NCBI GenBank assembly: GCA_000091205.1
Contig: AP006487.2
DNA from: Cyanidioschyzon merolae
Taxonomy: Eukaryota
Direction: 5' to 3' (one strand)
Length of the DNA: 64,000 nt
Shown: positions 18,681-57,191 of the stretch, piece by piece
Layout of the letters: each line of letters opens with the position of its first letter
Numbering within the stretch: the first letter of the stretch is position 1
Program-made: the position numbers and the translations under genes
The notes under the pieces: generated by a model
Database searches by the model: none
What the model saw: only the letters and a program-made list of their open reading frames with translations
Told to the model about the DNA's origin: nothing

Positions 18681-18751
18681 TGCGCTAGCCGGGAATCGAA
18701 CCCGGGGCAACTGCTTGGAAGGCAATTATGTTACCATTACACCACTAGCGC
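18681..18751 (-). tRNA. tRNA-Gly with anticodon UCC
   Basis: The reverse complement reads GCGCTAG TG GTGT AATGGTA ACAT A ATTGC CTTCCAA GCAGT TGCCC CGGGTTCGATTCCCGG CTAGCGC A. It has a 7 bp acceptor stem, D-arm, a TCC anticodon in a 7-nt loop, a T-arm GGTTCGATTCC and an A discriminator. No CCA is encoded, which is the eukaryotic type. Confidence 0.85.
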
Positions 18752-28167: not shown

Positions 28168-30390
28168 CTCTGAGTACCTGGCTTCGTGAAGGCGAGCTAG
28201 ATCTCACTAAAAATGATTCAGATGCAAATATTCTGGCCAGGCGCGGAGGTTCGAGTTTCGACTCTGGAACCATCGACAGCCGCCAACGAATCCTGCTTCT
28301 AAAGTGCTACGTTCACACCCAGTTCGCAGTCAGCGTGTAACAGCCCGCCTCCGATAATTCGGTCGTAAAAACTAATGTTTGGGAATGCTCCCGCTGTCGA
28401 AAAAATCAGCCTTTGCGGTCCTTTTCTCCAAGGGCTGCCTTTTCCTCTCTCGTAGCCGCAGCTTTAAATATTTCGGTCTCCCGTGACCCTCCAGCTCCCG
28501 TTTCAGAACTCTAGAAATGTTGATGGCGGCGTTAAAATCCCGTGTTCGCAGCTTCTGGTAGTTGTCGTCGCGTTTGGTGCACAGGCGGATGTTGCGATCT
28601 ACGCCTCGCTTGCCTTTTTTTCATCTTTGTGTACGGCCAAGGAGCGTCCTCTGCAGCGGTGGCACCTGGCTTTTGTACGGTGTTCCTATATGTGCAACGC
28701 GCCTTCCCCAATGAGGTTCACACTGTAGCCTGTGAACGCTCGCTTCAGCGCTCGATCCATGCCCTAGACGGTCGCAGAGCGATCCTGTCGATACATCCAT
28801 CGATTTTAGAGCCCGCTGTCGTATCCCGCTATCATGGAAGTCTTGTACGTGAGCCACTTAGCGAGTACTCTCCGTTCTGCAGACGCAACCGCATGGCGTT
28901 CCATTCGGTAGAGCATTTGCGGAGCGCGATATTGCTGATGATGAAACAAAAATCGGAAAGAAAATCATGGATAGAGAACAAGTCAGGAAGTGTTTATCCG
29001 TCAATGCTCCATTCGCGCAAAGCGGTGACGTACACTCGACTACAAGCGATCGCAATGATGAATCAAGTCCGAGTCCAAGAAAATTCTCCATGTAAGAAGA
29101 GGAGTCGGGAGCCTTTGAGAGCATATCCCGCCAGAGATATCTCGCTGCTGCCGAACGCGGTTTCTTCGATGTCTGCAAAGATTGGAGAATTTGCTTTTCA
29201 AACTGAAGGGATTAACTGTGTTGAGAAATTCAGCGTAGTTTCAGCATGAGTTCGTGAAAAAGTTGCCAAAGGGCGACGTCGATATTTATTTATCGCCGAT
29301 CCACTGGCGCGAATTTGTACGGCCACAAGTAGACTTACAACAGGGAGATCGAGTACTTGAAGAATGCATGGTTTCAGCATTCTAAACAGGAAAAAAGGGG
29401 AAGAACGGAGGCTTCTGCGTATGAACTGGTAAATGATATAGGTAATTTGACGTAATCATGTTCATCGGCGTCGTTATTCAACTTAAAGACAGTGACGTAA
29501 CAAATTCCGGCTCCAAAATGTCGAAAAGGTCACTCCCTAAAGACGACCGAGAATCCTAAAACGAAGCGTGAATCTGTAAGCTTTTGCTGCCGCACTTCAA
29601 ATGCCGACGCTGCACGCCTAACAAAGTTCCATTAAAATCCAAAGATGGTAACAGAGCTAGCGGTTCAGTGCCCCATATTAATCTTTTGCGGATGCAGAGG
29701 CTGCGGTGCGGAGTCGGCCATAGGTAGCTCGCAGCCGCTTTCGCGACATATCCGTATATGGGCCTCGTCGCTGCAATTTCCGGCGCCATGCAGGAGGATA
29801 TCTGCGTTTGCGTGCGGTTCGACGACACTTTGTCTTCGACTGAGGGTCTGGGCCTGTGTCTCGAGCAGGTAAGCAGTGTGGACTCCAGCAAATGGAGTCA
29901 GGGACATCATGGATGTTCCGAGGTCCATGCATCTCATTCGGAAATTCATGTCCGGAGCCGGCTGCCGTAATAGGCATATGCCGCAATGATGATTTCCTCT
30001 GACTTGGCTATCGAAAGATGTCTCGGGGCATCGAAATTCTACAGAGTCCGTCTAGAGTATCTATTTCTGTGCGTGGAGACACAACAGCACGAATAGGCAA
30101 TGCTATGATATTGTGGCTCTTATCACACGAGCGAGCAAGATGATGCGAATCATGTGCGATCATTGCGAGTCCACTTTCCAGTGGCGAAGAAAGAGCCAGA
30201 GCGAAGGCAACTTATGCCGTTTGTTGAACCGCGAGAGGTAAGACGGTTCCCGGGCACGGAGGCGAGCTGATCGTGTTGTAACCGCCCCAGCTAAACTTCC
30301 ATCAAGAAACCTTTCCCGCAAACTTCACGACAAGTAAACTCGTAGCTCGTCCATGTACCTAGAAAGGAGACTTCTCTGGTTAGGAGCGCT

Positions 30391-35351: not shown

Positions 35352-35763
35352 TCTGCCCGCTTACTGGGAAGTTGCGAGTACCTTGTCGTCTGTCGAGCGC
35401 AGCGCTGGTCCAATCACAGAGCCACTACGCGCTGAGCGTGCGGCGCGGTGCGCTCTTGCCACACCGGGCGTTTCGACGGCTAGTGTGGCGGTGCCGGCGC
35501 AACTGCCGTTCATCTGGTCGCACTAGAGGACGGGAGCACTACAGCTCGCGGTCTCATGGGGCGCTCGTCGCCAAATGCACAGACACAGCAACCGAACATT
35601 TGCTGACTCGTCCGAAGCTCGATTCCTGACCAACTGGATCGCCATGAGTTTCTGGAACGGAGAGGTGTACCTCGTGTAGCGGCGGTATCCTTGTAGGATA
35701 ACCACAGAAGCGCTAGTCCCGTTTGTCGACTCTGTTTCGATGTACCGTTTTCATATATCACAG

Positions 35764-37036
35764 TTAGAATAAAATGGAATGGGCCCACTTACCTTATTCT
35801 GGCGTGTAATCAAACTCTCTTGGTCTCTTCCAGTTGTGATCAACAACGGACTTTTCGGAGCCTCCTCAGCAACTGCTTCCTTTTCGTACCTCTTATCTCT
35901 TCCATTGAAAACACCAGCATCTCGTTTCCTCAAGCTCCGCTATTCACTGGCAAAGGGTGACGACGGCAGCGTGAGCGTCCTCATTTCGCAGCCTCCAGTT
36001 GTTTTCCCGTGCATTTCATGCGCAGGCGGTAGTTGCCATCTCCGCACCCCTAGCCATGAGCATCTTCTTCTCATACTGCCACGATGTGCCCTGTGCAGCG
36101 ATGGCGCTCGGCAGGGGTCGCATGACCCTGTGCGCTCACCCCACCCCTCTTTCGAGGATCGTCCTGTAGCGCGTGAAGGCTTCTTCCATCGTTCGTCACG
36201 TGTCCTTGACATGTAAACAGGGTTCCATGCGATGTCTTTCTCCGTTACAACGCGCCCGGCGCCGTTCCCGAATATCACGAGCTTCTTCTGGACGATCCTC
36301 ACCGCAAACACACCGTACGCACACACGTAGGAGTACGCTGTTCCGTTCGGTGGAGGATTTGTGGAGCGCTTCGTAGTTCACGGTGAAACAAGCACCAGAA
36401 GTCAAAAGCAGTCTGCAGAGCAAGTGGAGATATTTCGAGCCGTCTGCGCTCCCTTCGAGCAATGGAGTGACGCACTCTTTATCAGAGGCGATCGCTGCGA
36501 TGACTCGAGTCCGAGTCCAGGGCCATATCCCATCCTGGCAGAAGAGACGGGATCTTCCAGGGGCACGTCCCGTAAAGCATACCATGCCGCTGTAGAATGC
36601 CGTCTCGTCGGTGGCCGCAAAGAGACGGGGATCTGTCTCGCGGGTGGAATCGAAGATTAACTGGTATGAGAAATTCTGTGTTCTCGCAGAAGAAGCTTGT
36701 GATGGAGTCGCTATGCGGTGACGTCGAGGTTGTTTCTCGTAATCGATCCAGTGGCGCAGCGCGCTGCGTTCTCGAGTTGCACTGGGACAGATAAATCGAA
36801 CGTCTGCTGGCTGCTTGCATTCAGCCTGATACACGTAGGAGAGAGAGAAGAGCAGGGCATCGACGTGTGAATGGACAATAATATAGGTTGCTTTACGAAC
36901 GGTATTCGCGGGCGTTGCGTTCCATCTTGATACCGGTGAACTAGGGAAGAAAGCGGAAAGGCGTCGAAGGTGACACTCCGAATAAACTACCGAGAACTCC
37001 AGAATTAGATGTATATCTGTAAGCACTTTCTGTAGT
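35764..37036 (-). mobile_element. Copy 1 of a ~1.36 kb repeat family, called R1 here. It is slightly truncated at one end relative to copy 3
   Basis: The 353 aa ORF 36196..37257 is identical to ORFs 40595..41512 and 46783..47700 from residue ~73 onward (EVLQKVLTDIHLILEFSVVYSECHL...). Antisense ORFs 35779..36216, 35940..36326, 36361..36660 and 36383..36595 are also duplicated. The end is TTAGAATAAAATGGAATGGG at 35764. Confidence 0.75.
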
Positions 37037-39201
37037 ACTTCGAGTTTAGAGTCTTTGCATCCTAAACAAATTCTAAAAGAATCGAAAAGCTGGAACACAG
37101 CAGACAGTTCACTGTTTGATATCCTTATCTGACATGGGTATGAAATCAGAGGGAGGGCGACTGCCAGTGATGACGTTCTTGTTGTTTGCCAGCAACGCAT
37201 ATCCGTGCGGGGTACGGTGTAACGCAAGTCCAAGTTCTTGTGAAATTTATGATGCAAAACGCCAGCCGATCTGAGTTTTCAGGGTTTCAGTGTGTCCGCC
37301 ATGGTTTGTAAAGCTGTATCGATGGATGCATACCAAATGAGCCGTAAATCACGTGCGTGAAGAACTGGAGCATGCCGACAGTCTGGGCCGGGCGCTCCAG
37401 GCATTCTTGCACGGACGTTTTGGACGAATTCCAACCGCTGCTTTGTTGATGTTGACTATTCGTTGTTTTAAGGAGTCTCGTAATCGTCTTTTGGTATCGC
37501 GGCTGAACGCTCAGAGGTGCACTCTAGTATAGTGATCGGTCTTGCGAATGAAAGCCGCTGCGCGTTACGCGCAAAAACCATTAACTGGCGAGCAAATGCG
37601 CTCTAACAGCGGTCTCAAGTGCGATGCCTCGTATTCAATGGTAGCGACTAGGCACCCGAAGCAAATCTACAGTCTCGAAAGGGACATACGACAACCAGAC
37701 TTTGAGTCGTAGAACACGCGAGATATTCGATCGGCTTCTGAACGTTTCTGGGCAGGGGGCTCGCCAGTTCCTTAAGAGAACTGCTAGCATGCGGCGTATT
37801 CCGTGGAAATAACGGCCCTCGTTATCGGGGCGCCATTGATGCTTCAACTTGCAATCGAATAGAAGATATCTGTCCTGCTGTACACACACAGGCCAGCGAC
37901 CATTTATTTGAAATATGAATCCCTGCACTTCACGCTCCTTCGTCACTCGCGCGATTTTGTCTGCACCCTATCACAGGGTTTTCACATTCGAAATGTAGGC
38001 TAGCCCCATCTGGGTGCCACTCGGGCGCTTATTCATCTCTGAATCAACCCCTGACTTTCTTCGACTTCTTGCACTGTGGAGAGCTCATGCACGGACATCG
38101 GTGGGGCACTGGTGCAGAACCACTATATGAATTCCGGCTTCTCAGCATACAGACTCTGGCCAGCATCTCGTATGCGCTGCCTGACCATATTTTCAACGAA
38201 GGCAACGCGATCGCTGTGCATTGACGTTCAGAATCCAGGACCTCACTGGCGACGCTTATGCTCGCAACTACCGCGCTGCTGCTAAGCCTCCTGCGCAAGC
38301 ATAGTATCGACCTCAATGCCGCAGTCGCTACGTCACCAGTCCGTGCCGGTAGCGGCCTGACGCGCGTTGCTCGCCACCGCCAAACCTCTCCGTCAAGCAA
38401 TTTGGCCCTTTTCTGATACGGAGCTTGTTTAGCGCTTCCACGGGGACAGGGCGCGATCGTACAGCCAGAGCGTGTACTCTTCCAGGGACAACTGCGCCCC
38501 CTCTTTCCAAACTGCAGTGTGCTTTTCTGACCATCTCATGCGTCTCCTATCGAATCTGCTCTTTCATCTCATCATCAAGAAAATTCGCGGTCAAAGTCAC
38601 CGGAAAAAGAGAAAACTCGCACTGGAGCTACCGCTCCATATCCTAGTTCGGTTGCAATACAAGAGTAGAGGAACCTCGAGATATTTTCCTAAGCGGCGCG
38701 CGTTCCCTGCCACCACTGGCTGCAAGGCGGAGATTCTGGGGGCCTCGAGTTGCGTGGCGCGCGGGTGTGGCAACTGGTGGTTTACGTCTCCGTTAAGCGC
38801 TTATCTGACATAGCACTGCGTCGTGCTTCCCTTGTGTGTTCCTGGCGCGTGGAACAACGAACAGGGGACCAGCATAATGATTCAGGGAAAGAATTAGACG
38901 GAATTAGGACGACACTCAGGGAGGCACCCGCTGGTGCTTCGTTCAAGAGGCTTTGACACCTTTGAACGTTCAGAAGGCAGCTAGAACACTCCAGGCGCAA
39001 CCAGCATTGCTACCGCCTCGGGCGGCTGCGCCCCTTGTGTTGTGTGCTCTTAGTGAAGGTGCCTTTTTAGCTGGGCATCTGCTTTCCAAGATTGGCTTTC
39101 CTGACGGAAAACGCTGGCAGTGAAGGCTGAGGGAGCGTTTTCCTACGTGATTTGACACACAAACAGGTATACTATTGTTCACGCACAGTCTATACTCAAA
39201 T

Positions 39202-40497
39202 ATGTGCTCCAAGGGACAGAAAACTGAGAAGAAACTCCTTGCGAGCTCTACGGAACGACTCGCACAGCAAGGCGCACGAGCGGCTCGAGGTACACGAGCA
39301 GTGAACGCAGGAAAATATGCATCGGGTGGCAACCAACACAGCCAGAGCTGGAGTTTTATGTCACGCATGCGCTCATTTCTTCGTTTGGGAGCCCCTTCCG
39401 TAAGAAACCGAGATTCGAATTCTAAGAGCGCATGCGCTGGAACCTGCTTTGAATACGACAGAAACAATCGAGGCATGGAAACCAAAGGCGCCGAGAATCT
39501 CCGAAAAACAGTCCCACAAACCTCAACAGAGAGTTTGGGAAACCCGCAAATTTCCCTGAAACAGAAAATAACGGATCCAGGGAATGTTCGCGGAAGTGAC
39601 AGTGAGCAGCAGGCGCGCTCGGGCACTATTAAGAATCTCGACGCTCCCGTGGCCGAGACTGCTCCAACTTCTGAGGTGCAATGTGGCAGCCGGGAAGACG
39701 ATTTGTGCCGAAGTCGTCATTGCCCCGGATCAGACTCATATCCAGCAGAATTTTTCCCCGCAAGTAGTCTATGGCCTGATAGAGACGATGATCAATCCAA
39801 GCAAGCGACCTCCCTGCGCTCCACACAATTGCTCGAGGAACCACATAAGAGAGACTCTAATCCCAGCACGGGAACTCCGCTTTTACCTCCTCAGAAAGAT
39901 ATCCACAGGGGCTTGAAGACTCTGGTTTTAGATCTCGACGAGACCCTTGTTCACTCTGGCTTCGACAAAATTGACAGGCCTGACTATGTACTTCAAATTG
40001 AGGTTAACGGCATTCTTCGAACACTCTACGTGAAGAAACGTCCCGGCTGTGATCGGTTTCTGCGAGAAATGGCAGACTATTTCGAAATCGTGGTGTTTAC
40101 TGCGTCCCTAGCGAAGTATGCGGATGCGGTTTGTGATCTGCTGAATCAGTCTGTAGGCCGGGACGTAATATCGTACCGCTTGTTTCGAGACTCCTGCGAA
40201 TTCGACGTTGACGCCCTCTGTTTTGTGAAAAATTTGCACTATCTTGGTCGAGATATTCGAAAAATAGTGATTGTTGATAATTCGCCGAGTGCCTACTTGA
40301 AAAACGCTGAGAATGCGATTCCTGTTGTCTCGTGGTTTAACGATGAATCCGATAACACACTCGAAGCGCTCATACCGCTCCTCCAAGAAATTGCTGCTGC
40401 AGACGACGTGCGAGATGCTATCCAGAAATCCCCAATCGTTCAGAAACTTCGTGAGAACTTCGGCAGTATCGCAGGCGAGACGAGTTACGCGCAGTAA
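39202..40497 (+). CDS. CTDSP: CTD small phosphatase-like protein (FCP1-homology / NIF domain, HAD superfamily)
   Basis: LVLDLDETLVHSGF carries the DxDxT catalytic motif, followed by ...YVKKRPGCDRFLREMADYFEIVVFTASLAKYADAVCDLLN...VDNSPSAYLKNAENAIPVVSWFNDESDNTLEALIPLL, which is typical of SCP1/Dullard-type phosphatases. The N-terminal half is low-complexity. The first ATG is at 39202; the track start at 39175 is TTG. Confidence 0.85.
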   Translation: MCSKGQKTEKKLLASSTERLAQQGARAARGTRAVNAGKYASGGNQHSQSWSFMSRMRSFLRLGAPSVRNRDSNSKSACAGTCFEYDRNNRGMETKGAENLRKTVPQTSTESLGNPQISLKQKITDPGNVRGSDSEQQARSGTIKNLDAPVAETAPTSEVQCGSREDDLCRSRHCPGSDSYPAEFFPASSLWPDRDDDQSKQATSLRSTQLLEEPHKRDSNPSTGTPLLPPQKDIHRGLKTLVLDLDETLVHSGFDKIDRPDYVLQIEVNGILRTLYVKKRPGCDRFLREMADYFEIVVFTASLAKYADAVCDLLNQSVGRDVISYRLFRDSCEFDVDALCFVKNLHYLGRDIRKIVIVDNSPSAYLKNAENAIPVVSWFNDESDNTLEALIPLLQEIAAADDVRDAIQKSPIVQKLRENFGSIAGETSYAQ

Positions 40498-40586
40498 CAT
40501 TGATGTATTCTCTGACCATTGCGAATATAACCATGCTAGCCTCCTGATCAAGCAACAGTCATTCTGTACACTCAAGTCAAATTAAA

Positions 40587-41885
40587 ATGGAACAGTGAAC
40601 TGCTCGCTTTCATCTTGCCATTCGATCCTTTTTCTGGAACTTTTGACATTGACCAACTCGGCGTTCGAAGTGCTACAGAAAGTGCTTACAGATATACATC
40701 TAATTCTGGAGTTCTCGGTAGTATATTCGGAGTGTCACCTTCGACGCCTTTCCGCTTTCTTCCCTAGTTCACCGGTATCAAGATGGAACGCAACGCCCGC
40801 GAATACCGTTCGTAAAGCAACCTATATTATTGTCCATTCACACGTCGATGCCCTGCTCTTCTCTCTCTCCTACGTGTATCAGGCTGAATGCAAGCAGCCA
40901 GCAGACGTTCGATTTATCTGTCCCAGTGCAACTCGAGAACGCAGCGCGCTGCGCCACTGGATCGATTACGAGAAACAACCTCGACGTCACCGCATAGCGA
41001 CTCCATCACACGCTTCTTCTGCGAGAACACAGAATTTCTCATACCAGTTAATCTTCGATTCCACCCGCGAGACAGATCCCCGTCTCTTTGCGGCCACCGA
41101 CGAGACGGCATTCTACAGCGGCATGGTATGCTTTACGGGACGTGCCCCTGGAAGATCCCGTCTCTTCTGCCAGGATGGGATATGGCCCTGGACTCGGACT
41201 CGAGTCATCGCAGCGATCGCCTCTGATAAAGAGTGCGTCACTCCATTGCTCGAAGGGAGCGCAGACGGCTCGAAATATCTCCACTTGCTCTGCAGACTGC
41301 TTTTGACTTCTGGTGCTTGTTTCACCGTGAACTACGAAGCGCTCCACAAATCCTCCACCGAACGGAACAGCGTACTCCTACGTGTGTGCGTACGGTGTGT
41401 TTGCGGTGAGGATCGTCCAGAAGAAGCTCGTGATATTCGGGAACGGCGCCGGGCGCGTTGTAACGGAGAAAGACATCGCATGGAACCCTGTTTACATGTC
41501 AAGGACACGTGACGAACGATGGAAGAAGCCTTCACGCGCTACAGGACGATCCTCGAAAGAGGGGTTGGGTGAGCGCACAGGGTCATGCGACCCCTGCCGA
41601 GCGCCATCGCTGCACAGGGCACATCGTGGCAGTATGAGAAGAAGATGCTCATGGCTAGGGGTGCGGAGATGGCAACTACCGCCTGCGCATGAAATGCACG
41701 GGAAAACAACTGGAGGCTGCGAAATGAGGACGCTCACGCTGCCGTCGTCACCCTTTGCCAGTGAATAGCGGAGCTTGAGGAAACGAGATGCTGGTGTTTT
41801 CAATGGAAGAGATAAGAGGTACGAAAAGGAAGCAGTTGCTGAGGAGGCTCCGAAAAGTCCGTTGTTGATCACAACTGGAAGAGAC
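40587..41885 (+). mobile_element. Copy 2 of the ~1.36 kb R1 repeat. It carries an intact 305 aa ORF and lacks the terminal ~58 bp at its right end
   Basis: It starts ...AAATGGAACAGTGAACTGCTCGC at 40587, an end shared exactly with copy 3 at 47707. ORF 40595..41512 is 305 aa with only 1-2 aa differences from copies 1 and 3. Similarity to the other copies stops after ...ggaagagac at about 41885. Confidence 0.75.
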
Positions 41886-41967
41886 AAAAACAGAAAAAAG
41901 TAGGCCAAGTAAGGTCTATTGAGCTGCTCGATTTTATTTCGACGTGGGCGTGGTGCGTGCGCACGAG

Positions 41968-42816
41968 TTAGCTGTCTTGATCCTTTCCATTGTGTTCCAA
42001 CATATGTAGAGAGACTTCCCTGCGTTGTGCACCGCAAGTTGGCTGAGGCCCGCGCAGGCTACCCACTACAATTGGTTCGTTGCCGGTATTCACCCTAAGT
42101 GCTGGCCCAGTTTCAATAATAATGCCGCACGGTGGCATTGGTGCACATCGAGAAATCCATGGCATTATTGGCATACTATTCGAGACGAGAACAATTGCAT
42201 TGTAGATGCAAGCCAGGGAGCGCAGCCGTAGCCCAGTCTCAATCAGCGGGTCGGGATCAGTGCCTGTTGCGGCGGCAACGAAACCACTGACAGCGTCAAA
42301 GATCAGCAGCAGGGGTTGCAAACTAGTGCCGCTGTGCTCATGCATTGTAAAGTGACAAAGTCGACGCTCCTCTTCAGCCTCCGTCTGGCGCAGTACGTCT
42401 AGCACGTCCTCTATACAAAAAACGGGGAAAAGCTGATAATACGAACTTGATGAGATTTGTGGCAACCTCGTTTGAACCAGATCCACGCACTGATGATTAT
42501 TTTCACTATCCAAGTATACGATTCGGAAAGTGTGAATATTTCGCGAGAGAACAGAGTTGCAGAGCAGGCTCTTGCCAGTCCCGCTTCGGCCCCGCAGCTC
42601 TATGTACTGGCCAGGACGCAGGCCACCGCCGAGGGCCACATCCAGCTCCTTCACCCCGCTTTTGGCGAAGTACTGGCCGTAAAGTGCTGATCGCTCGTGC
42701 ACGCTTGCGAGTTCCTCAAAAAGCGGTCGTCTCCAGGCACCTTGTCGGCCTGCTGCTCCAATCTCCACGGTGTGCACGAGCTCAGCGCCTGCTGAGACTC
42801 GGCTCGTTTCCTCCAT
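41968..42816 (-). CDS. RecA-fold ATPase, a RAD51-paralog-like protein of the XRCC2/RAD51D class
   Basis: LDVALGGGLRPGQYIELRGRSGTGKSLL combines the RAD51-family LDxxLGGG element with a Walker A motif. A Walker B-like LLLIFDAVSGF is present. The protein is 282 aa, the size of small RAD51 paralogs, and starts with an ATG at 42816. Confidence 0.55.
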   Translation of the reverse strand: MEETSRVSAGAELVHTVEIGAAGRQGAWRRPLFEELASVHERSALYGQYFAKSGVKELDVALGGGLRPGQYIELRGRSGTGKSLLCNSVLSRNIHTFRIVYLDSENNHQCVDLVQTRLPQISSSSYYQLFPVFCIEDVLDVLRQTEAEEERRLCHFTMHEHSGTSLQPLLLIFDAVSGFVAAATGTDPDPLIETGLRLRSLACIYNAIVLVSNSMPIMPWISRCAPMPPCGIIIETGPALRVNTGNEPIVVGSLRGPQPTCGAQRREVSLHMLEHNGKDQDS

Positions 42817-45800
42817 TTCTCAATAGCAAGCGCTCGGACTGCCGTCTATACCATTATTCTAATAGACGATTTCCAAAAACAAGTGGCAGCCACTTTGGAG
42901 CAGCCGCTCTCTATTTAGTACTATCGAGTAGACGATTAACAGTATTCTCCCCTGGTCGGCAATAACATTGTTCCTCGTGCACATTTGTCGCGCTTCTGCC
43001 TCGCTGGGTTGCCGACTATACCGTGGCAGTGCCTCGTTCTTTGAGGGCACCAGATCCAGTATCTTTCGGCCAGTGACTTCCTTTCGTCAGAAGTATTACG
43101 CTATTCTGCACGATTCCATCGCTGAATAAGAAACGATCCGCTCGAAATTTAGCTTAAAATAGAGCCGCTGAACTCTTCGGAAGCATGAGACATTTCTGTA
43201 TGTTAATTAAGGCATTTATGTCTGGATGATGAAAATGCTTGAGCGCATAGTTGCCGGTGGAATCACACCATAGCGAGCCTCCTAAATTCGAGTGCCCTGT
43301 TATCTGAAGATCGGCCAGCCTTCTGTACTGCATAGAGTGCATGCGGCTCTGTTGCAGTATCTGCTCTACTTGTTCTATGTGCATTTGTATTATTAATACG
43401 CACATATCGCACTGAATGCATCGATAAGGATGCTACAGCATCGATTCTTGCACTGGTTGCACGCTCTCGTCGAAAGGACGGGAGCTCGGCGTTTGCACGC
43501 TGAAGCACGTCCAGCGCCAAGGGCTACCACCGAACGACACGATCCGTAGCTTGTTCTCTTTTACGACTTTTTTTCAACAAGTTGCAAACGCATGCTTCTT
43601 CCCTCCGTCTATCCGAGACTCTCGTAAATTCAACGATATATCATGAACGCCTGCTAAGGATCGTCCGCATGATCCATTTTGACGGTCATGCACATCGTGC
43701 ATGAAACTGTACAAAGCATGTTCCTCGCTTCCATACGGCGCCTAGATATTTGAGAATGAGGTCATGACACAGTCGATCCACTTCTTCGGATTTATTTCCG
43801 CATTCAACACGCCCTGCTGTCGATCATACCAAGCTCTGTAAAAGCTGGGCAGCTTCACCTTCTTTCCGTTCTGATCTTTGGCTCCGTCCTGTTTGTTATG
43901 AGGTTCGTGCACGTGACGTTGTTTATTGAACAAGGATCCACACTCACAGAAAAATCTTCCTCTTCGTCCACCTTGAAAGCTTGAGTACCTGTCTCGCTGC
44001 ATGATTCAGGCCTAAGTTTCAAAAGGCACGTGCCGATTGATATCCCGCCGGTCTCCGCCTCCTGTGTGCGACATTCCATTGCCTCATTGTAAAAGAGAAC
44101 GCCTTAAATAACTCCGCAAATGCTGTTTGAGCATTCTTACGATTGCTTCATCCTCGCTGGCAGAGATTAGCCGAGGCTCACCGGGCGGGCCATAGGCTAC
44201 AGAGGACAAGCGTCTACCGTGACATAAAGGCCCTTGGTCTAAGAAAATCGGGAGCAAATCGAATAGAAGTTTGAGAGGGATAGGGCGCTCGCCGACAGGG
44301 CGCAAGTCTGCTGTCTTGCGCGCTGGAGGGCTGTGATTAGGAAAGCGTTCCAGCCCAAGATGCAAGACAAGCTGCTATCAGGTCTCAACTAGCCTTTGGA
44401 TACGAGACAATCGGTCCGAGGCCCAGAGCAGCTTAATATGCTTGGACTCTCCAAAGCGACTCATCCTCTCTGTTCGAGATCTCTGCCGAAGCCGCCGCCA
44501 GCTCGTCATTTGCCCCTTGCCAATGCCACAAGAATCCTTTCTGTGAGTCATTATCTCTCTGGTAAAGTAAGTTCAGCGTTCGTCGCTCAGAAGGTGCGTC
44601 TCCTGGTGCGCTCCGCTTTGATCCGTTTATGCATTGGAGATTGGATTGACAATTATTGGCAACCGTGCTGTAGATTCTCTTGATCCCAGACACCGTGACG
44701 TAGCAATGTATTCCGGGAACGGAATGTGCGTATTTCTGATCGTAACAGCGGGGCGTGTTGCACATCGTGTCCAGAGCACCAGTTCTGTTGTCGCTCGAAA
44801 GTTTAATCGATAATTTCTGAAGCACACTGGAGAGCTGGCATCCCAGCGTCCGGGAATCCTACGAAAAGTTGTTGCACGATGTGCGTCAAGGTAAGAGAGG
44901 CTGTGCAAGCCTTCACAGAGTAGAAGCAATGCGATGCTTAATGGAGTCTTGCATCTCACATTTCGTAAGATTCTTTGGTTTATATGGTTTTCTAGGGAGA
45001 TCCCGGCAAATGAATCAGAACCTTTTTTACAGCTCGTAGATTTTTGCGTTTGCGTCCCTCTCCATCCTCTTTTCGAAAGAATCATGCTCTTCTCGGTCGA
45101 GTTCTTTCTTCCCCTTTCTTTTCTTGGGCATTCAAACGCATTGATCGGAAGGAGACACTGAAGCTTAAGTTTTCTATGTGTGCGATTGCTGTGCCTTGAA
45201 TACATTTTATTCACCTTCTCCGTCGCGAGAATGCCCATGGACCGAAGAGCGACTTTCTGCTCTCTACTGCATACGAGCGGATAGGCAACGAAACTGGTAA
45301 GGACTGGAAACAGCAGAAAATACTTGTCATGAGCGGCGTCACCTGTACGAACTATACTTCTATTGGTCCGGAGGCGTAAAATTGACGCTGAACAACGGGA
45401 AAGTCGCATTCGATTCGACTTTACCCAGGAGGACACGGTGGCATGATGATCAGCTCAACGCCACTCTCAGCTGAGCAGTCCTTGACAGATTTGTGTGATG
45501 GAAAGCGATGTCGTCTAATACCAGGAAAGGAGAATGTGGCAAGGAGAAGCCACAAGGAGAACTTCGATGAAGGATGAGATGTCGATCGATCCCATCCGTT
45601 TGACACTTTATAGGGGACCGCGCGAGTAAATCGTAGCAAGGGCTGGCGTTATCGACATTCTCGCTTTCCTCCTCTACACAAACAGTGTTCCGTCCGTGTT
45701 TGAAGGTCCATTTGAACGTCTACTATTTCCACTGAATAATTTCTCATCCAAAGAGGTGAGCACCCGTGCGTCCTGTGGCAAGCGTTCAAGTTCCAGGATG

Positions 45801-46350
45801 GAACCAATAAAGCGTTGTTCAACGCGCAACGGTCTCCCATGGGAGCTCGTCAGTTTCTTTGTCCTACCAGTTCCACTCTTCACTATTTTTGTTATACGTA
45901 CGAACTTTTTAAATTCTGTTGCTTGTTTGGTGGTATTTATCAACGAAAGTATGGAGCGCAATGAATAGACAACGAGGAATTCGTGTAAATAGAGTTTAAT
46001 TAGTACTGGTTTGAGTATATTATGCACAAAATAGAGAAAACGAGCAGGGCAGTCCAGCCACCTGCTGACGGTTGCGTAACGGAATTCTACAAATAAGACA
46101 GTCACATTCAGTACAGAGAAGTGACTGCGCACTGTCCTTCTGCAACCGTTCTTAAATCTTAAGGCATCATTCTAATATTAAATACCCACGAGAAATTCAT
46201 ACAAATGCAAAAAGGCCTGCTGGTAATCGCAATTCAGAATTCGCTTTCCTGAGAATAATTGCCACTAAGGTTGACAGCAGTGCGCTTCCTGGACAGAAGT
46301 TCGTCAGGCAGGCATATTGGTCACCAGCAAGCGTTTCGACCAAACCATTA

Positions 46351-47707
46351 TTAGAATAAAATGGAATGGGTCCACTTACCTTATTCTGGCATGTAATCAA
46401 ACTCTCTTGGTCTCTTCCAGTTGTGATCAACAACGGACTTTTCGGAGCCTCCTCAGCAACTGCTTCCTTTTCGTACCTCTTATCTCTTCCATTGAAAACA
46501 CCAGCATCTCGTTTCCTCAAGCTCCGCTATTCACTGGCAAAGGGTGACGACGGCAGCGTGAGCGTCCTCATTTCGCAGCCTCCAGTTGTTTTCCCGTGCA
46601 TTTCATGCGCAGGCGGTAGTTGCCATCTCCGCACCCCTAGCCATGAGCATCTTCTTCTCATACTGCCACGATGTGCCCTGTGCAGCGATGGCGCTCGGCA
46701 GGGGTCGCATGACCCTGTGCGCTCACCCCACCCCTCTTTCGAGGATCGTCCTGTAGCGCGTGAAGGCTTCTTCCATCGTTCGTCACGTGTCCTTGACATG
46801 TAAACAGGGTTCCATGCGATGTCTTTCTCCGTTACAACGCGCCCGGCGCCGTTCCCGAATATCACGAGCTTCTTCTGGACGATCCTCACCGCAAACACAC
46901 CGTACGCACACACGTAGGAGTACGCTGTTCCGTTCGGTGGAGGATTTGTGGAGCGCTTCGTAGTTCACGGTGAAACAAGCACCAGAAGTCAAAAGCAGTC
47001 TGCAGAGCAAGTGGAGATATTTCGAGCCGTCTGCGCTCCCTTCGAGCAATGGAGTGACGCACTCTTTATCAGAGGCGATCGCTGCGATGACTCGAGTCCG
47101 AGTCCAGGGCCATATCCCATCCTGGCAGAAGAGACGGGATCTTCCAGGGGCACGTCCCGTAAAGCATACCATGCCGCTGTAGAATGCCGTCTCGTCGGTG
47201 GCCGCAAAGAGACGGGGATCTGTCTCGCGGGTGGAATCGAAGATTAACTGGTATGAGAAATTCTGTGTTCTCGCAGAAGAAGCTTGTGATGGAGTCGCTA
47301 TGCGGTGACGTCGAGGTTGTTTCTCGTAATCGATCCAGTGGCGCAGCGCGCTGCGTTCTCGAGTTGCACTGGGACAGAAAAATCGAACGTCTGCTGGCTG
47401 CTTGCATTCAGCCTGATACACGTAGGAGAGAGAGAAGAGCAGGGCATCGACGTGTGAATGGACAATAATATAGGTTGCTTTACGAACGGTATTCGCGGGC
47501 GTTGCGTTCCATCTTGATACCGGTGAACTAGGGAAGAAAGCGGAAAGGCGTCGAAGGTGACACTCCGAATAAACTACCGAGAACTCCAGAATTAGATGTA
47601 TATCTGTAAGCACTTTCTGTAGCACTTCGAACGCCGAGTTGGTCAATGTCAAAAGTTCCAGAAAAAGGATCGAATGGCAAGATGAAAGCGAGCAGTTCAC
47701 TGTTCCA
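46351..47707 (-). mobile_element. Copy 3 of the ~1.36 kb R1 repeat, taken as the apparently full-length reference copy
   Basis: The plus strand begins TTAGAATAAAATGGAATGGG (46351) and ends ...GAGCAGTTCACTGTTCCATTT (47707). These termini form an imperfect inverted repeat, TAAAATGGAA / TTCCATTTTA. ORF 46783..47700 (305 aa) and the antisense ORFs are identical to those in copies 1 and 2. Confidence 0.75.
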
Positions 47708-50574
47708 TTTCATTCTGACAAGGATTTGGGGCTGTTGGAGAAATATTCGCGAGTGCCACATCAACGGATAGGCATCGGGGTTCACCGCGTGGGAAACGTT
47801 TTCCTGGGACTCCCGAGCGTATACGTGCGGACAGAGCTAGTTTAAGCGTTCTGCTCGGCTGCTCAGTTAGTATGGTTTAACATGAACAAGCACGAGCCTG
47901 CATTATTGTGAGGTTCGACCGTGCAGGGTTACGCTGCCGCACTTGGCCCAAACCCCTCCATATTAAAGTGGCACTCAAACAGCACATGAAGTTACTGTGA
48001 GAGTCCTCAATCTTACGATTCAGAATCCAAAATGACTTGGCAGTAACCAGTAGAACGCTGGCGAGGGATTTAGCAGCTTCAAAGAAACTTAGTCGTCGAG
48101 ACGAGGTGCAGCATCACGGAGCCTGCGAACGGAGCTTTGAAGGATCACACAATATCTATGTTCGCGGGATCCTTAATTTTGCAGCGTAGGTTCTTGACGT
48201 GCTAGACGGAGCATCTGAGGGATATGCCCTCAGATACGAAACAGAGTGCGTTTACCGAGCGACGGCTCTGCCGCTTGAGCAGTGCGACCGGTCCACGAAG
48301 CACCCGGGCTTTATGATTGTAACAGGTATAATACGTTTACCAGAAGCGCATCTTTTTGTCTGCACTATTCAGAGACTTTACTTGTGCTGCCAACACTATT
48401 CTTGCAGTGCCGGGCACGAAAGGTTAGTACAATGAAGCGTGCTGTGGAACGCAGCACAGTAGTGCGCAGTAAAAGAGCATATCTTACCGCAACGCACATG
48501 TGCGTGTGTAGCGCCGTCAGGTCCATCATTAACAAAAACTACTCACTAACTACCAACTAGATACCGAATTCGTTCCCCATCTACTGTAAGCGTTGAGAGG
48601 GGGAAAGCTTTCCGTATTTTCGAAAGTTTACCTTCCAGGCGGAGGATCACGCGAGAAGGACGAGTCTTCTGGGCTTGTGTTTCAAGCTCCTCCCAATGCT
48701 AGGTGATGTGGCGCGACTTGAGTGGCTCGTCCACAACGCAGTTTATTCTAGGACTAGGAGCGGGTATCCTGTGTCTGGACTTCGCCCTAGTCGCGGCGGT
48801 CTCCATGTGTATCACTTTGCACTGCCGCAGGCAGTAGGTCTCTCTGTACAGCTTGCGGGCTTCCAGAATGGTAATGAATCCCGATTCCGTTTCGAGTGGA
48901 CCACGCCTCGAGCCGATGCCCTTAACGGTATGGCAAAGCAGTTCTGTTTCTATGTTGCATCCGCACCTGCGCTATAGCCGCTAAGGCGGGTGCTCACGGC
49001 ATGCTCGGCGCACGATAGAACAACGAAACGACCAGTACATGCGAGAGGAATTATGGGTAATGGAACTTGAAGGTAAGGCGCATCATGGTGGACGCTTTCC
49101 CGAAAGCCAACATGGATCCCACAATAAGCGATCCATGATCAATGTAAACCTTTTGTAAAACAAAAACTGAATGGAGCGTGAAAGAGAGCGCTTCGAACGT
49201 TTGGCCTTTACGAGCGGTTCATTGTCGGGTAGACTCTGCTGATGCCGCATGCGGGCGAACTTTGGTTGATAATCCGAACTAGTTATTTCGCCTGAAAGAA
49301 GTCTATTGCGAGAGTGCATATTCACGAGATCCTCTCGCTCAGAGTCTGTGAACACACAAGCAATCAGTTCCGAGGGAATAGTAACTTCACGTGAAACTCG
49401 ATCCCAGCCGATGGCCTTTTCGATTTGCGCGCAAGAGAGTGGAATCCCATACACTGATGCTAGCGACAAGCTTTTGACCGATACCACTGCCTTGTTTACG
49501 AGTAAGCGGCTGTGAACAATGCATAGCATCGATATTTGAATCCTATTGCAAGCTGATTTCGAAGACGCTTGGCGGCAACGCGGTTCCTGTGGATCCCGCA
49601 ACGCGCTATGCCCTGCGGTCGGTAATCAATCATGCGCTACGCTTAGGCAGGTGGGAGAATTTGCAGATTCTAGTGGGGGTTTTCGCTTTCATTATTCCTT
49701 TTCAAACGACTAATTGGGAAATCGCATGCTTCAGCACCTGAATTTGCACCAACTCTGCCCTTGGGCCTCGTTCCACAAGGACGTCCCGCATCGTAACTGG
49801 TGATTTGTTGACCTGTCATCGCGGAGCAAGCGCGAGCTTCCGTTGATCCTCTCGGACGCAATACTCCAAAGGAATCGATTTTCCCACATAAATCCATACA
49901 GGCTACAAATGGAAGAGGCAGCAGCGGCTAGCGTCGCGAAACGCCTGGCCGCAAATGGGATCCTCTCTGTGCGACCCGGAGCAACTGCAGTGCCTGGCCT
50001 ACATATCGCTATGTATCTGACCGACTTGGACGATTGCGTGTCTTCATCGTCGACCCCGAACATAATCCTCAACAAAAAGGATCCACGGCACCGCTTCAAG
50101 AACGCTTCTCATGCCTTTAAGTTTGCACGCTTTCTGGATCCGACACGAGGCAGCATCTCGTTTCGAGCGCAGTGTGTGCATGCAACTACGGGAACTTGTC
50201 CATATTGCACGAAGTGTACAGTGGACAGATGCAACACGCTCTGGCACTAGAGCTGCCGCATCTAAAACGGCGCTGCGCCATTTATGCAGAATTTACGAAA
50301 GCGTAGCATCTCTGTTCGAGATGCATTCTCGAGCCCTTTCGTCCTTCTGATTTTTAACAGGGTATTGGTGTGTAAACATGTGAGGGTTGCATATTCTTGA
50401 CCATGCCATCAAATGAGTCTTCTCGGGTCTCCGTGTTGTTAAAGCAACAGAGGAAGCGACGCTGCTGCAGCGCTCCCATCCTCACGGGTGGCTGCAGTGG
50501 GGCCCAGACATGAAATGATCTGTAGCAATATCCATGATTCTTGATGGCTTCCAAGATATAACCACGCTGGATAC

Positions 50575-51642: not shown

Positions 51643-51903
51643 AGCGCGGAGCGATCAAGCTTCCACGAAAGAGAGGCTCACAGCACAAAGACTGCCGCTA
51701 CCAAGGAATCAATCCTTTGTGCCTCCTCCGGCGATAATACGCGATCCAGTGCAGGCCAGACAGCTCTGGGACCAAAACGAATACGACACAAAACTAAACG
51801 AGGGGAACGCTTCCTCTGCAGTGTCCAGCAAAGTTCACTGAAACGAAAATGTCTCACGACTGTAGAGTAATTTAGTACCGACGCGCAGGCGGCCCCTAGC
51901 CAT

Positions 51904-53010
51904 CTAGAACAGGCCTCCTGCTAATGGTTCCATTTTCTCCTTGCACACTTCGAGCCTGAGATGCTGCCCCACTAATTTCGATTGCGTCAGCTTCTCGGGC
52001 CTCGTCTTCAGCGCCGTACGTGTCCTTATATCGATAGCAGCGCTGAGGTCTCGATTCACGAACTCTACACAGGCTCTGCTGCAGGTAGCACTTACTTGGG
52101 CAAGGCGTCCTGGAACTCTTGCCGTCTGAGTGGTTTGCTGGCCTGTCAGCTCACCGTGCCTTTCTATCACCGACGCGTTCCGCTGGCGCCTCTCCATCTC
52201 GAGGTTCTGAAGTGTGTACCCCAGGTAAGCTCTTGGGCTTTTTATTTCTTCAAAGTGAACGCACTTGTATATGACCTAAGACAAGTTCTTACCGGAGCGA
52301 CAAGAACTTCTGGAAGAAAGTGGAAGTGTGCGCTTGTGTCACCGTGTGCTGCAAGCTTCAGCGATTTGCTCAATGGAGCGATCTTTACGTTTTACGATAC
52401 TAAACCCTCGTTAGATACTGTTGAACCTCGAAAAGTGTGGAGGAATGAAAATCAGCTCTATCCCGATAGATTTCGCTAAAGCTCAAACGCAAAGGGAATG
52501 TTGAAGTACCACCATGTCCAATACAAGGACGACGCCGACATCAAGGAAAATCCTTCAATGATTAGACAAAGTGGGTGCTGTTGTTTGAGCCTTCCCTACG
52601 AGCGAAACTGATGCTGCCAAACGAATCCAGCGCAGATGGAGCATGCGATGATATCTTCATTCTGTACGAGTTCAATCGTTCATACAGAGGGCTCGCTCTC
52701 CGCGAATACCCATAAACGTTCCGACCGTTTCGTCTGAAGAAAGTCTCATCGACTGCGAAAAACAAACCGACGTCCGTGGATGTCATGCGGATGGCTGAGT
52801 TCCAGCAACGCGGTCGTTGCGATTTCGTTGGAAGATAACCGTACGTGAACTACGATTTTTTGCAATCGTATCCCAGTGTTTTCAGGACCACACGAACTAG
52901 CTGTTGAGAAAGAGAGATGTCAATTGTTGCTACGATTGTTGCTGTTGCCTTCTGTAAAACGTGATCAACGACTCGTTTCCCACCGTTGACCACAAACACG
53001 CTTTGAAAAG
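51904..53010 (-). mobile_element. Second internally deleted derivative of the Fanzor/TnpB-like element, the inverted partner family of 23160..24500
   Basis: Minus-strand frames carry the RuvC-III-like motif VNRDLSAAIDIRTRTA...LRLEVCKEKMEPLAGG (51904..52197), YSRRASPLYERLNS...ALDSFGS (52562..52786) and KKQEHVPPPRSDLFKACLWSTV (the C-terminus of ORF 52930..53388). These are collinear with the blocks in 23160..24500. Confidence 0.5.
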
Positions 53011-53439
53011 ATCGGATCTTGGCGGGGGCACATGTTCTTGTTTCTTTCCGTAATACCCGACCATCTGCTTTCTGTGGTACGACTGACCTGTAAGAGGAAT
53101 GCAGTCCCCCTTGCTCTGTTCAGCAAAGAATCTGTCCTTTAAGCAACTCGTCCGCGATCTACAAGGTACATTGCATAGTGATTTCGAACTTCTTCTCTTT
53201 ACTGCGAAATCGCATTCCGTCACACTCAGCGGGAGTGGAAAAAATGAGTTGAAAGACCAATGTGCGGATGCGGATACGATTCGTCGTACATCTTGTGTCA
53301 GCCAGTAGAGCTTTCTTGAGGCTACGTTTTGAAACTGGGACTCCCCCAACGTCTGAGCAACCAGGCTAACTGAGCATAAGTCTGGCAAGAGCCGCTTTGC
53401 AGCTTTTAGGGGCGGCTAACCTATGAAGCTCTGTTCAGG

Positions 53440-55113: not shown

Positions 55114-57191
55114 AAAGGCCTGACGAAGCTACAGCCTGCTGCTTCTCGAATCTCAAGACGTTTGCTTCTGCGGAGTTTGGCTATTTTTACAAGGTAAGCT
55201 TCATCTTCTGGTTGTGACCAGTGCAATTGATGAGATCCTTGCTGTGGATGCTAAGTGCTGAATGTGCATGCCCGGTGATACCGGTTGAGAAGCTCTGCCT
55301 GAAGTTCGGTGAAATGCGGATATGCTTACGGGATCTCGCCACGTTGGAGTAGCGGATGATGAACTTTGTGTGCTGGATAAAGAGCTTCTAAATATGAATT
55401 GTTACATGCTTTGATTTTCGGAGCTCTTTAAATTCGTCCCCCAACGCTTCTTCGTTGTTTGCGACCGCTCCGTACCTTTAAGCAACCTTGATGAAGCGCT
55501 CCGGAGCCTGGGAACGATTCTGCGCTTTTACTCGCCTCGCAAACCGCTGCGACCGATCAGTACACCCGCGTAGATCAAAATGGAGCGTTGAAATGATCAC
55601 TGTGCTCTTGTCCATCAATTCCTCTTCCGAACTTATTTTCAGATGTACAGCTTCGAAATTCGATGTGTCGCATTATGGGCTTATGGATTCATGCGATGAT
55701 TTAAGGTTCTCGGTCAGTATTGCTGAGAGTCGCACTCGACGCTTTTCATATTGAATTCGTTACGTCACCGTCATCATGAACCAGCAGCGCGTACGTCGCT
55801 TAAGTGCAGAAACTGCGCAAGGAAAAATGGGCGGTACAAGCTACCGTCCCAAGAACAGGACGCAGCCGATTCTCAAATTGTCAGAGGCCTGGGCAGAACA
55901 AGTTTCCGACTCCAACTACGTCACTACGGCTACCAGGTTCATGCACGGTCTGCCGAGGGCGCTCACGCATATAATCGTCACCGACATTCCAGCTTAGATC
56001 CAGCATATTGCCAGCGAGTGCTCTGCGTCGCTTCCCGCTAAAGCTCAGCGGTTTGAAGCGGTGACAATATCCACAGCCCCAAAGCTTTTGTGTCTGCGTA
56101 CGGACGTATGACTGGGTGTCACTGTAGTGGCCACATTACCTTCAGTCTTGCTGACTCTCATGTCAGCGTGCGAACTCGGTGATCGCGTTTTACACGTAGG
56201 GCGCACTGCACTGTTCCTTTCGACACTCAAAATGTCGTAGCCGGTGTTCATCTGCCGACCACAGACGTGGGTGTTGTTTTCGATCAGGAGTTTATAGAGG
56301 GAAGCGACCTGCTGGGAAGATATCTAGATTGTACGGGTAAGACACTTGATGCAGCGACTACGCGCCTGAACCTCTCGTGCATAAGAAGCGAATATCGCTC
56401 AAGTCGACCTGCAAAGAGCGCACATAAAGTGCTCTCAGCCAGTCAGCTTGACGCCCCATTGCAAATAATGACGCGAGCGCCACACTGGTGGCGCAGACAT
56501 TCAATGAAGAGTCACGAATGCGTCAAAGTTCTTGTCCGAGCTTTGGAGTGCGCTGCCGAATTGTTACCTGGGACGTCGCGTGCTGCGGTGATCAGCACCA
56601 ACGACAGCCACTGAAAATGTCGATGAGTAGCACGAAGGATACAACGAGCCGTCATGCTGGTCGGTTCGAGGTCGTCGGCAGCAGCGAGCACCACGAACTG
56701 CGAATGCCGCCCCAGGGCGACGGTCGGCGAGCCACTGACGCTGGACGCTTCCGAGCTCAACCGCAAGGACCTCCTGGCAGGCAGGACGCGCATCGCGCAG
56801 CACCTTTGGGGCATACGCACTGGCTAGGTTTTCCTGAGAGCAACACAACGCATTCGACAGCGACGCCAATTAGCCACCAACTGCATGTTCGCGTTCTCAG
56901 TTAGACCGCTCCGTCGCCACATTGTACGGAAGTAGTCCCGGAGATGTCCTTGTGTCTGCCGCAGCTCTTGCGGGACGAAGCACAGGTCATGCCACCGCCG
57001 CCCCCCACGTATAGACATGACTGATATCGTGTCAACTCCTGCGTCTTCCGGTTGTCGTTACTACGTGCTGGCCGAGAATGTCGCAACTCTCCAAATGACA
57101 AGAGGTCCGGTATGAACTTCACCAAGATTTTGCGCATCTTCTTATCCGCGGACAAACTTAATCGCCACTCATGGTCGGTTGTCGTCCACGA

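Follow-up and report, generated by a model that had tools for sequence, protein, structure and literature searches.

A putative mariner/IS630-type deletion derivative with a Fanzor remnant in Cyanidioschyzon merolae, and neighbouring copies probably kept alike by gene conversion

In a 64-kb stretch of DNA from the red alga Cyanidioschyzon merolae (contig AP006487.2; this whole stretch is the window, and positions are counted from its first letter), three nearly identical copies of an element of ~1.38 kb, here designated D1, D2 and D3, lie within 12 kb of one another. Exact protein matches place the window on chromosome 5 of strain 10D. A sequence-only reading of the same DNA had taken the three copies for a recently active transposon family. 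We propose instead that they probably belong to an old, dead, non-autonomous family, and that they have been kept alike locally by gene conversion. The earlier claim holds in so far as the copies form a DNA transposon family that has terminal inverted repeats (TIRs) and is present at multiple loci genome-wide; its recent activity does not hold, given copies that are 54-59% identical and coding-dead, near-identity tracts that are internal to the elements, and termini that are decayed.

Tracts of near-identity and the ends of the copies

Self-BLAST aligned D1 (35764-37043) with D3 (46351-47630) at 99.69% identity over 1280 bp, D2 (40576-41888) with D3 (47719-46407) at 99.39% over 1313 bp, and D1 (35820-37043) with D2 (41888-40665) at 99.59% over 1224 bp. 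The three copies in the orientations minus, plus and minus that had been reported were thus recovered at about the same positions, with identities of 99.4-99.7%. Across their interiors (~1220 bp) the copies are 99.7-99.8% identical; in particular, only 5 sites vary among the 1222 alignment columns of the shared tract, and ~45% of positions are mismatched immediately outside it.

The sequence-only reading held its copies 1 and 2 (our D1 and D2) to be truncated relative to a reference copy (our D3). All three are, however, full length: D1 occupies 35758-37140 on the minus strand (1383 bp; positions 6-1357 of a family profile hidden Markov model (HMM) by nhmmer, together with mapping to the family consensus), D2 occupies 40569-41950 on the plus strand (1382 bp), and D3 occupies 46343-47726 on the minus strand (1384 bp). 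The ends said to be missing are present and ~45% diverged. In the case of D1, the first ~100 nt are 50-71% identical to D2 and D3 yet homologous to them, and nearer to another copy in the window, copy A (z=11.2 against D3 and 15.5 against A, with flank controls at z<1). From alignment column ~247 onward D1 is 98-100% identical to D2 and D3, so that 43 mismatches in columns 143-241 are followed by 2 across the next 1250. This diverged 5' end (37044-37140, minus strand) would mark one border of a conversion tract. The other border would lie in D2, which is 98-100% identical to D1 and D3 up to column ~1468 and ~45% mismatched over its last ~60 nt (41889-41950, plus strand); the homology of this 3' end to the family is seen at z=4.2 only (flank controls z<2.5). 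Judged from these alignments, D1 and D2 appear to be full-length mosaics rather than truncated copies.

A second pair in the window has the same structure. Copy A (9104-10481, plus strand) and its inverted partner copy B (18911-20281, minus strand) are both full length, and A matches the D copies at ~57% identity. Self-BLAST put A (9116-10261) and B at 99.65% identity over 1146 bp, with 99-100% across columns ~151-1300, whereas their last ~200 nt are 48-69% identical and homologous (z=15.2). Overall, identities in the diverged ends outside the tracts range from 41 to 71%; the tract borders lie 8-105 nt inside the element for the D copies and ~200 nt inside it for A/B, and the flanks beyond the elements are unrelated between copies. 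The mosaic of near-identity and old divergence with unrelated flanks that is expected of concerted evolution was therefore found in the D copies and, independently, in A/B. Other neighbouring pairs, 2-7 kb apart on four environmental Cyanidioschyzon contigs (L042, L050, L080 and L085), are only 57-59% identical. (The environmental contigs used throughout are >99% identical to 10D and were reached via flanking genes, a terminal-motif scan of metagenomes and open reading frame (ORF) look-ups.)

Identity, age and abundance of the family

Relaxed BLASTN and nhmmer identified 6 full and 2 partial copies of the ~1.38-kb family in the window, of which they make up 14.5%. In addition to A, B and D1-D3, these are the solitary full-length copy C (28322-29694, minus strand; 54-59% identical to all others), the 3'-truncated copy E (60130-60918, minus strand; HMM positions 6-797) and the 5'-terminal fragment F (55563-55789, plus strand; HMM positions 7-239, with TA just before it). 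Full copies from the window and from environmental loci all span HMM positions ~6-1357. The majority consensus of 12 independent full-length copies from both sources is matched by the individual copies at 70-75% identity (about 72%), and the copies are 54-59% identical to one another in a star-like pattern, with conservation flat along the element.

At its two ends the consensus carries a 31-nt TIR, CCGCTACACCCGTGTCAGATTAAAATGGAAC, in which 28/31 positions match between ends, and stacking of 29 termini gave CTACACCCrTGTCAGAwTAAAATGGAAC, with ~28 nt conserved. The 3' TIR scored at or above the 95th percentile of a shuffled null (24.0) in 7/11 copies. The inverted termini TAAAATGGAA/TTCCATTTTA picked out by the sequence-only reading do exist, as part of this longer imperfect TIR of ~25-31 nt. 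The 5' and 3' TIRs lie at 37114-37140 and 35758-35780 in D1 (minus strand), at 40569-40593 and 41926-41950 in D2 (plus strand), and at 47702-47726 and 46343-46367 in D3 (minus strand).

The D copies carry no recognisable domain, as had been noted from the sequence, and Pfam matched none of the element's own ORFs; the family consensus, however, matches two domains. Its 261-residue transposase frame, which starts MYSLD, matches Pfam DDE_3 (E=4.2e-10; 40.1 bits against a cutoff of 28.6) and, upstream and less strongly, HTH_33 and HTH_Tnp_Tc3_2; its NCBIfam IS630 match (E=2.3e-18) falls short of the curated 100 bits. The transposase-profile search that the sequence-only reading had proposed is thus positive for the consensus (E=4e-10), and 6/25 decayed family ORFs match DDE_3 individually. 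The frame stops at YSP..(N)P, just ahead of the third catalytic residue. The frame at the 3' end of the consensus matches PF07282 (Cas12f1-like TNB / OrfB zinc-ribbon) at 33.1 bits (cutoff 26.3; E=6e-8) and positions 329-388 of the 389 of NCBIfam TnpB, below the NCBI curated cutoff. This stub corresponds to the last ~110-125 residues of a Fanzor protein, with the N-terminal ~525 residues missing, and is a remnant, not a Fanzor gene. Between them, transposase and Fanzor remnants make up almost the whole element: they lie at 36275-37060 and 35906-36287 in D1 (minus strand), at 40648-41433 and 41421-41802 in D2 (plus strand), and at 46862-47647 and 46493-46874 in D3 (minus strand), respectively.

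Searches with the consensus transposase returned decayed copies at 50-68% identity and 3 intact DDE_3 transposases of 306-317 aa, which align end to end at 98-100% coverage. Gene order was checked for 2/3 of these (P0224 and P0225, on contigs of ~3.3-3.6 kb): each is followed by an ORF of 636-657 aa, and PF07282 was found on the contig of P0225. The intact relatives in metagenomes are thus elements of ~3.1 kb with a transposase and a Fanzor. In one of them (L087; ENA ERZ19565769, 3610 bp) the consensus transposase aligns from MYSLD to YSP..NP (E=2e-28), the consensus Fanzor stub aligns with residues 527-635 of ORF2 (E=3e-10), and the TIR is ~49 nt long and begins TACACTC, versus TACACCC in the C. 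merolae family. (Note that in the apparently intact relatives, L087 and contigs in ERZ1426603 and ERZ1426850, a DDE_3 transposase of 306-307 aa is directly followed by the Fanzor-like ORF of 636-657 aa, and that these relatives are 28-32% identical to the C. merolae consensus.) Because the consensus transposase and stub align to parts of such transposase-plus-Fanzor relatives, the family appears to be a non-autonomous internal-deletion derivative, with ~1.7 kb lost, of a ~3.1-kb mariner/IS630-type transposon carrying Fanzor1.

Tc1/mariner-type elements with Fanzor1 have been described before, namely PUl-1, PUl-2 and PGv-1 (Bao & Jurka 2013, PMC3627910). The gene order of the intact relatives is that of PUl-1 and PGv-1 (TIR, IS630/mariner-type DDE transposase, Fanzor1, TIR, with TIRs of 24-33 nt), and the reconstructed transposase and Fanzor stub match the PUl-1 proteins at E=2e-5 and E=1e-5, respectively, more weakly than they match L087. 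Unlike PUl-1, PUl-2 and PGv-1, the C. merolae family is seen only as a 1.38-kb derivative with a truncated transposase, a C-terminal Fanzor stub and hundreds of decayed copies; C. merolae yielded no intact master copy, and a TA duplication is not clearly preserved. The DDE_3 core, the upstream helix-turn-helix domains, the size of ~1.3 kb, the TIRs of ~28 nt and the TA flanking the consensus are shared with IS630/Tc1-mariner (ITm) elements in general, from which the family differs in being small through deletion rather than through compact autonomy and in lacking ~45 residues at the C-terminus along with the third catalytic residue. Classification as a miniature inverted-repeat transposable element (MITE) was rejected, because the element is 1.38 kb long (versus under ~800 bp) and is made of transposase and Fanzor remnants.

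The family is dead as far as coding is concerned. Every copy examined in the window and at the environmental loci contains stops or frameshifts, none has an intact transposase with all three catalytic residues, and the Cyanidioschyzon sequences searched contained no copy able to encode a working transposase. No PDB sequence was matched by the consensus Fanzor stub or by a profile built from the decayed ORFs, and a terminal-motif scan of viral contigs gave one chance match.

A frame of 305 codons is open in all three D copies (D3, 46783-47700, minus strand; D2, 40595-41512, plus strand; D1, extended upstream, 36196-37257, minus strand), as the sequence-only reading had stated, and differs among them by 1-2 residues; its supposed initial methionine (MNCSL...), however, is a GTG, and the first in-frame ATG is codon 177. 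It keeps the first catalytic Asp (TDETAF), has lost the second (CFIMDN to CFTVNY) and lacks the third. The same frame contains 6-13 stops in the other copies, whose long ORFs lie in different frames and strands with no frame in common. Moreover, substitutions in the D frame fall evenly on the three codon positions (0.41/0.42/0.44), and D, compared with a leave-one-out ancestor, has a ratio of nonsynonymous to synonymous substitution rates (dN/dS) of 0.87, a value inside the range of 0.51-1.17 given by the other copies, used as controls. The 305-aa product matched nothing in Pfam and only its own metagenomic twin in a word-indexed protein search; exhaustive phmmer added 50 weak matches, all to metagenome-only ORFs of variable length aligned to residues ~110-290, and no annotated homologue was found in 5.8 billion proteins. 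We read the frame as the ancestral transposase frame, a pseudogene that is open by chance; on the scenario set out below it would be a by-product, an old transposase frame that happens to lack stops.

These observations bear on the idea that the repeat is a functional host element under selection, be it a multi-copy host gene encoding the 305-aa product, a gene for a non-coding RNA, or a module with a regulatory or terminator role. The open frame is unusually long, D2 sits exactly between two convergent genes with ATTAAA and AATAAA in its TIRs, and C. merolae repeats are reported to be transcribed (Nozaki et al., PMC1955436). Against this, an ordinary multi-copy host gene (the outcome that the sequence-only reading had itself listed as contrary to its claim) is contradicted by the lack of any coding or selection signature, by the stops in other copies and by the absence of annotated homologues. 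As for RNA, Rfam searches of the whole window at the gathering threshold and of D3 at E<=1 returned nothing beyond a tRNA and a chance match to a snoRNA, and no conserved or unusually stable RNA was found in the 3' part of the element, where an omega-RNA might be sought (conservation flat, sense-strand z >= -1.9). Members of the family are poorly and evenly conserved along their length, and selection would not yield 45% diverged ends with knife-edge borders. We therefore regard a selected host function as extremely improbable.

TnpB and Fanzor nucleases have their guide RNA encoded where the nuclease gene passes at its 3' end into the right end of the transposon, and the deletion derivative retained precisely the Fanzor 3' end plus the right element end. 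Intact CMe-1 Fanzor genes are still present in C. merolae (Bao & Jurka 2013, PMC3627910). It is conceivable, if quite improbable in our view, that a Fanzor supplied in trans uses, or once used, the copies as guide-RNA templates or as targets, with breaks repaired from a neighbouring copy driving both spread and homogenisation; if so, this would be a eukaryotic counterpart of TnpB-assisted transposon retention.

The environmental contigs reproduce the copies of the window and carry extra family copies at 5 unrelated loci. (Note that one family member, seen on L046 at 9741-8944 and on L064 at 8896-8100, lacks HMM positions 669-1228 and keeps both termini, as a secondary deletion derivative.) Exhaustive HMMER searches yielded 51 ORF clusters; since none of 9 copies found independently of ORFs is among them, the family has at least about 180 members genome-wide. 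The copies do not, therefore, represent a segmental triplication confined to 12 kb. Copy density, with 4 extra copies in ~79 kb of flanking DNA and 8 in the 64-kb window, suggests several hundred to about 2000 family members.

Proposed gene conversion and its rivals

The history that we consider likely begins with a Tc1/mariner-IS630-type element of ~3.1 kb, which would have carried a DDE transposase gene and then a Fanzor1/TnpB gene between inverted repeats of ~28-49 nt. A derivative would have retained both ends and, between them, the transposase as far as its third catalytic residue, joined to the last ~110-125 Fanzor codons. Presumably mobilised in trans, it would have reached some hundreds of sites or more in one ancient burst. 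Subsequent neutral decay could account for copies that are now ~72% identical to the ancestor and ~57% identical to one another; a single ancient burst followed by neutral decay is suggested because the pairwise identities are even, identities to the consensus fall at 70-75%, and conservation is flat. D1-D3 would be three old insertions within 12 kb whose interiors were homogenised by gene conversion, whereas the outermost 8-105 bp would have stayed outside the converted tract and diverged like other members. Gene conversion is favoured over fresh insertion or truncation because the ends are homologous yet anciently diverged; the mosaic ends likewise favour ectopic recombination, which the sequence-only reading had offered as its alternative. 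Because recombination should not start between DNA that is 57% identical, conversion within the D group would have continued ever since insertion, as concerted evolution, and the same would hold for A/B, whereas most other neighbouring pairs would have escaped and drifted.

Concerted evolution by gene conversion is familiar from the arms of sex-chromosome palindromes, from yeast Ty/delta elements and from plastid inverted repeats. The D copies resemble such cases in having a sharp-bordered tract of near-identity within older homologous sequence, in lying close together on one chromosome and in including inverted pairs that could invert the segment between them. They differ in being dead transposon copies in a haploid, very compact genome, and in that only a minority of neighbours is homogenised.

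Recent activity of the transposon would make D1-D3 fresh insertions of a mobile element, two of them truncated on insertion. The 99.4-99.7% identity of the clustered copies fits such a history, as do the frequent local hops of cut-and-paste elements, the presence of TIRs and the TA before D2. Truncation, however, could not produce "missing" ends that are present, homologous and ~45% diverged; moreover, none of the Cyanidioschyzon sequences searched holds a transposase-capable copy, and the ORF has neither a start codon nor the second catalytic Asp. Insertion polymorphism was not seen either: the D3 5', D2 5' and 3', and D1 5' junctions are present in every environmental contig that reaches them, and thus invariant across samples. 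Nor was a D-type copy found at another locus among the metagenome matches, since all matches at >98% map to the same three sites. We consider recent transposition very improbable.

The main rival to continuous gene conversion is a one-off recent overwriting of ~57% identical copies, both D1-D3 and A/B, by homeologous recombination, template switching or break-induced replication. It predicts the same mosaic pattern; most neighbouring pairs are not homogenised, so that homogenisation could be a rare event rather than a steady state; and the divergence between paralogues (0.2-0.3%) is as small as that between strains (0.2-0.9%). Homologous recombination, however, needs stretches of near-perfect identity, and mismatch repair blocks it at such divergence. 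Copies that are 57% identical offer almost no such stretches, and the same donor would have had to serve for three copies. A one-off event is therefore unlikely in our judgement.

A further possibility is that the near-identity is an assembly artefact, arising from a repeat collapsed or copied in the reference. Long environmental contigs end 136 bp into D3, and all the assembled environmental D interiors share one haplotype, which would be in keeping with such an error. Nevertheless, the 10D chromosomes have been finished from telomere to telomere (PMC1955436), the three copies in this reference can be told apart by differences of their own, and all the unique junctions are reproduced by independent contigs. 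We find an artefact barely credible.

Several points weigh against gene conversion within an old mariner/IS630-type family, and should be set beside the arguments in its favour. Gene conversion is deduced from the pattern that it would leave, and only 2 of ~6 neighbouring groups remain homogenised. The classification depends on the reconstructed consensus, for the D copies themselves match no profile, and the NCBIfam IS630 and TnpB scores fall under the NCBI curated cutoffs. The copy number is a bound, derived from the window and environmental sequences. A TA target-site duplication is a hallmark of Tc1/mariner insertion, and here it is only weakly visible: TA just outside CACCC... is the consensus dinucleotide, yet it is found at 11/29 termini, with CA/TG at 9 more, in copies that are heavily decayed. 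(D1, for example, has TA at 35756-35757 and CA on the other side, and D2 has TA at 40567-40568; the termini and flanking dinucleotides have decayed across the family.) A permutation search for target-site duplications of lengths 2-9 at several offsets found no convincing one, so that neither this check nor that of insertion polymorphism, both proposed with the claim of recent activity, supports that claim. Finally, the single environmental D haplotype may reflect collapse by the assembler, which undermines the evidence for inversion described next.

A crossover between D2 and D3, which lie in opposite orientations, would reverse the intervening 4.4 kb (segment S, 41951-46342), which contains the RAD51-like gene CME051C and an unrelated repeat of ~3 kb. 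Four environmental contigs cross a D copy. Two (L047 and L001) have the 10D order, and two from different projects, L002 (ENA) and L034 (JGI), have the two junctions expected of a flipped D2-D3 segment (window 40569-47726). The D interiors assembled from the environment all carry the haplotype G-A-T-C-G, which mixes 10D D2 and D3 states; with all assembled copies sharing it, typing of single-nucleotide polymorphisms does not separate true inversion from misassembly. The contigs thus hint at inversion by D2 x D3 recombination, as a lead only, an assembler mis-path being a possible alternative. (The inverted pair A/B encloses several ORFs and a tRNA-Gly(TCC) gene at 18681-18751, and the 8.4-kb segment between A and B could also be invertible.)

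Neighbouring genes, other repeats and significance

Genes of the window identified by exact protein match are those for isoleucine-tRNA ligase, CME051C, CME052C, an M20 peptidase and FtsH2, in a genome that is nearly without introns. As the sequence-only reading had it, the D copies bracket an ORF for a NIF/C-terminal domain (CTD)-phosphatase and the RAD51-like CME051C. These two genes are convergent, and D2 accounts for 1382 of the 1470 bp between their stops (window 40498-41967), leaving spacers of 69 bp after the CTD-phosphatase stop and 15 bp to the RAD51-like stop, rather than the ~80 bp that had been given for the latter. Read inward, the TIRs of D2 present ATTAAA (40581-40586) to one gene and AATAAA (41938-41933, minus strand), 30 nt past the stop, to the RAD51-like gene. 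Because of the 15-bp spacer and the position of the AATAAA, D2 very probably supplies the 3' untranslated region (UTR) of the RAD51-like gene, as had been suggested before, and from the same sequence features it very probably supplies 3' UTRs or poly(A) signals to both convergent genes, whose transcripts would end inside it. More generally, genes transcribed into such an element may use its ends as poly(A) signals. (Note that the 3' end of copy A lies 6 bp before the first ATG of ORF 10489-11781 (window 10482-10489); the annotated start of this ORF is probably further downstream, because its exact 430-aa product is absent from the protein collection.)

The interspersed repeats already known from C. 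merolae are of another kind. Published surveys list 26 retroelements, 8 class II elements (0.7% of the genome) and a "novel interspersed repetitive element" of 3.2 kb with 253 copies and a truncated WSV486-like ORF (Nozaki 2007, PMC1955436; Mikulski 2017), and P-MITE records zero MITEs in the genome. CMe-1A, in turn, is 3169 bp long, has ~150 copies, lacks TIRs and a transposase, and encodes Fanzor1; its copies are ~80% identical to the consensus and some retain an intact Fanzor (Bao & Jurka 2013, PMC3627910). By its size and Fanzor content CMe-1A is the "novel interspersed repetitive element", or "WSV repeat", because white spot syndrome virus (WSSV) also encodes a Fanzor1. The 1.38-kb family shares with CMe-1A its genome, its old age, its abundance, its interspersed distribution and its relation to Fanzor, and differs from it in having TIRs and a transposase remnant and in being older (~72% to consensus). 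The two are not the same repeat: BLASTN against the CMe-1A consensus, taken from the supplement of Bao & Jurka 2013, gave nothing below E=0.7, they occupy separate locations in the window, and TBLASTN with the CMe-1 Fanzor against the 1.38-kb consensus found only a motif of 17 residues (NRD.NAAINI; E=0.015). We found no earlier report of the 1.38-kb family in the searchable literature, which does not cover Repbase.

The window also contains CMe-1A itself, as a nearly full-length, frameshifted copy at 12870-15167 (minus strand; positions 787-3084 of the published consensus at 79% identity), in which residues 10-722 of the CMe-1 Fanzor can be traced by TBLASTN across several frames. The 635-bp module at the 5' end of CMe-1A (TE-N2_CMe of Bao & Jurka) recurs at 48531-49156 (minus strand, 82%), 57918-58551 (plus strand, 63%) and 17488-17739 (minus strand, 64%). 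An inverted repeat pair of ~1.4 kb at 23015-24410 and 51870-53198 (67-71% identity) ends in 3'-terminal fragments of CMe-1A (24152-24402 and 51877-52224; also 12865-13041) and is possibly a further composite repeat family. A direct repeat of ~3 kb at 145-2270 and 43048-46083 (57-59% identity), the second copy of which lies inside segment S next to D3, shows weak TBLASTN matches to CMe-1 Fanzor residues 562-651 (628-371 and 43542-43414), and may represent a third family related to Fanzor, in a more decayed state.

C. merolae is widely cited as almost transposon-free (0.7%, eight class II elements, no MITEs). An unannotated mariner/IS630-type family that occupies 14.5% of the window, and probably several percent of the genome, would revise this picture and help to explain what fills the surprisingly large intergenic space of a "minimal" eukaryote. 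The red alga would thereby gain a second, older Fanzor-linked transposon lineage, one with a clear transposase partner and intact metagenomic relatives, which should be useful for tracing how Fanzor has travelled with mariner-type elements. The knife-edged tracts would be a clean natural instance of conversion among dispersed repeats, in a species employed for genetics based on homologous recombination, in which the inverted pairs are candidate inversion hotspots and a potential source of off-target homology in gene targeting.

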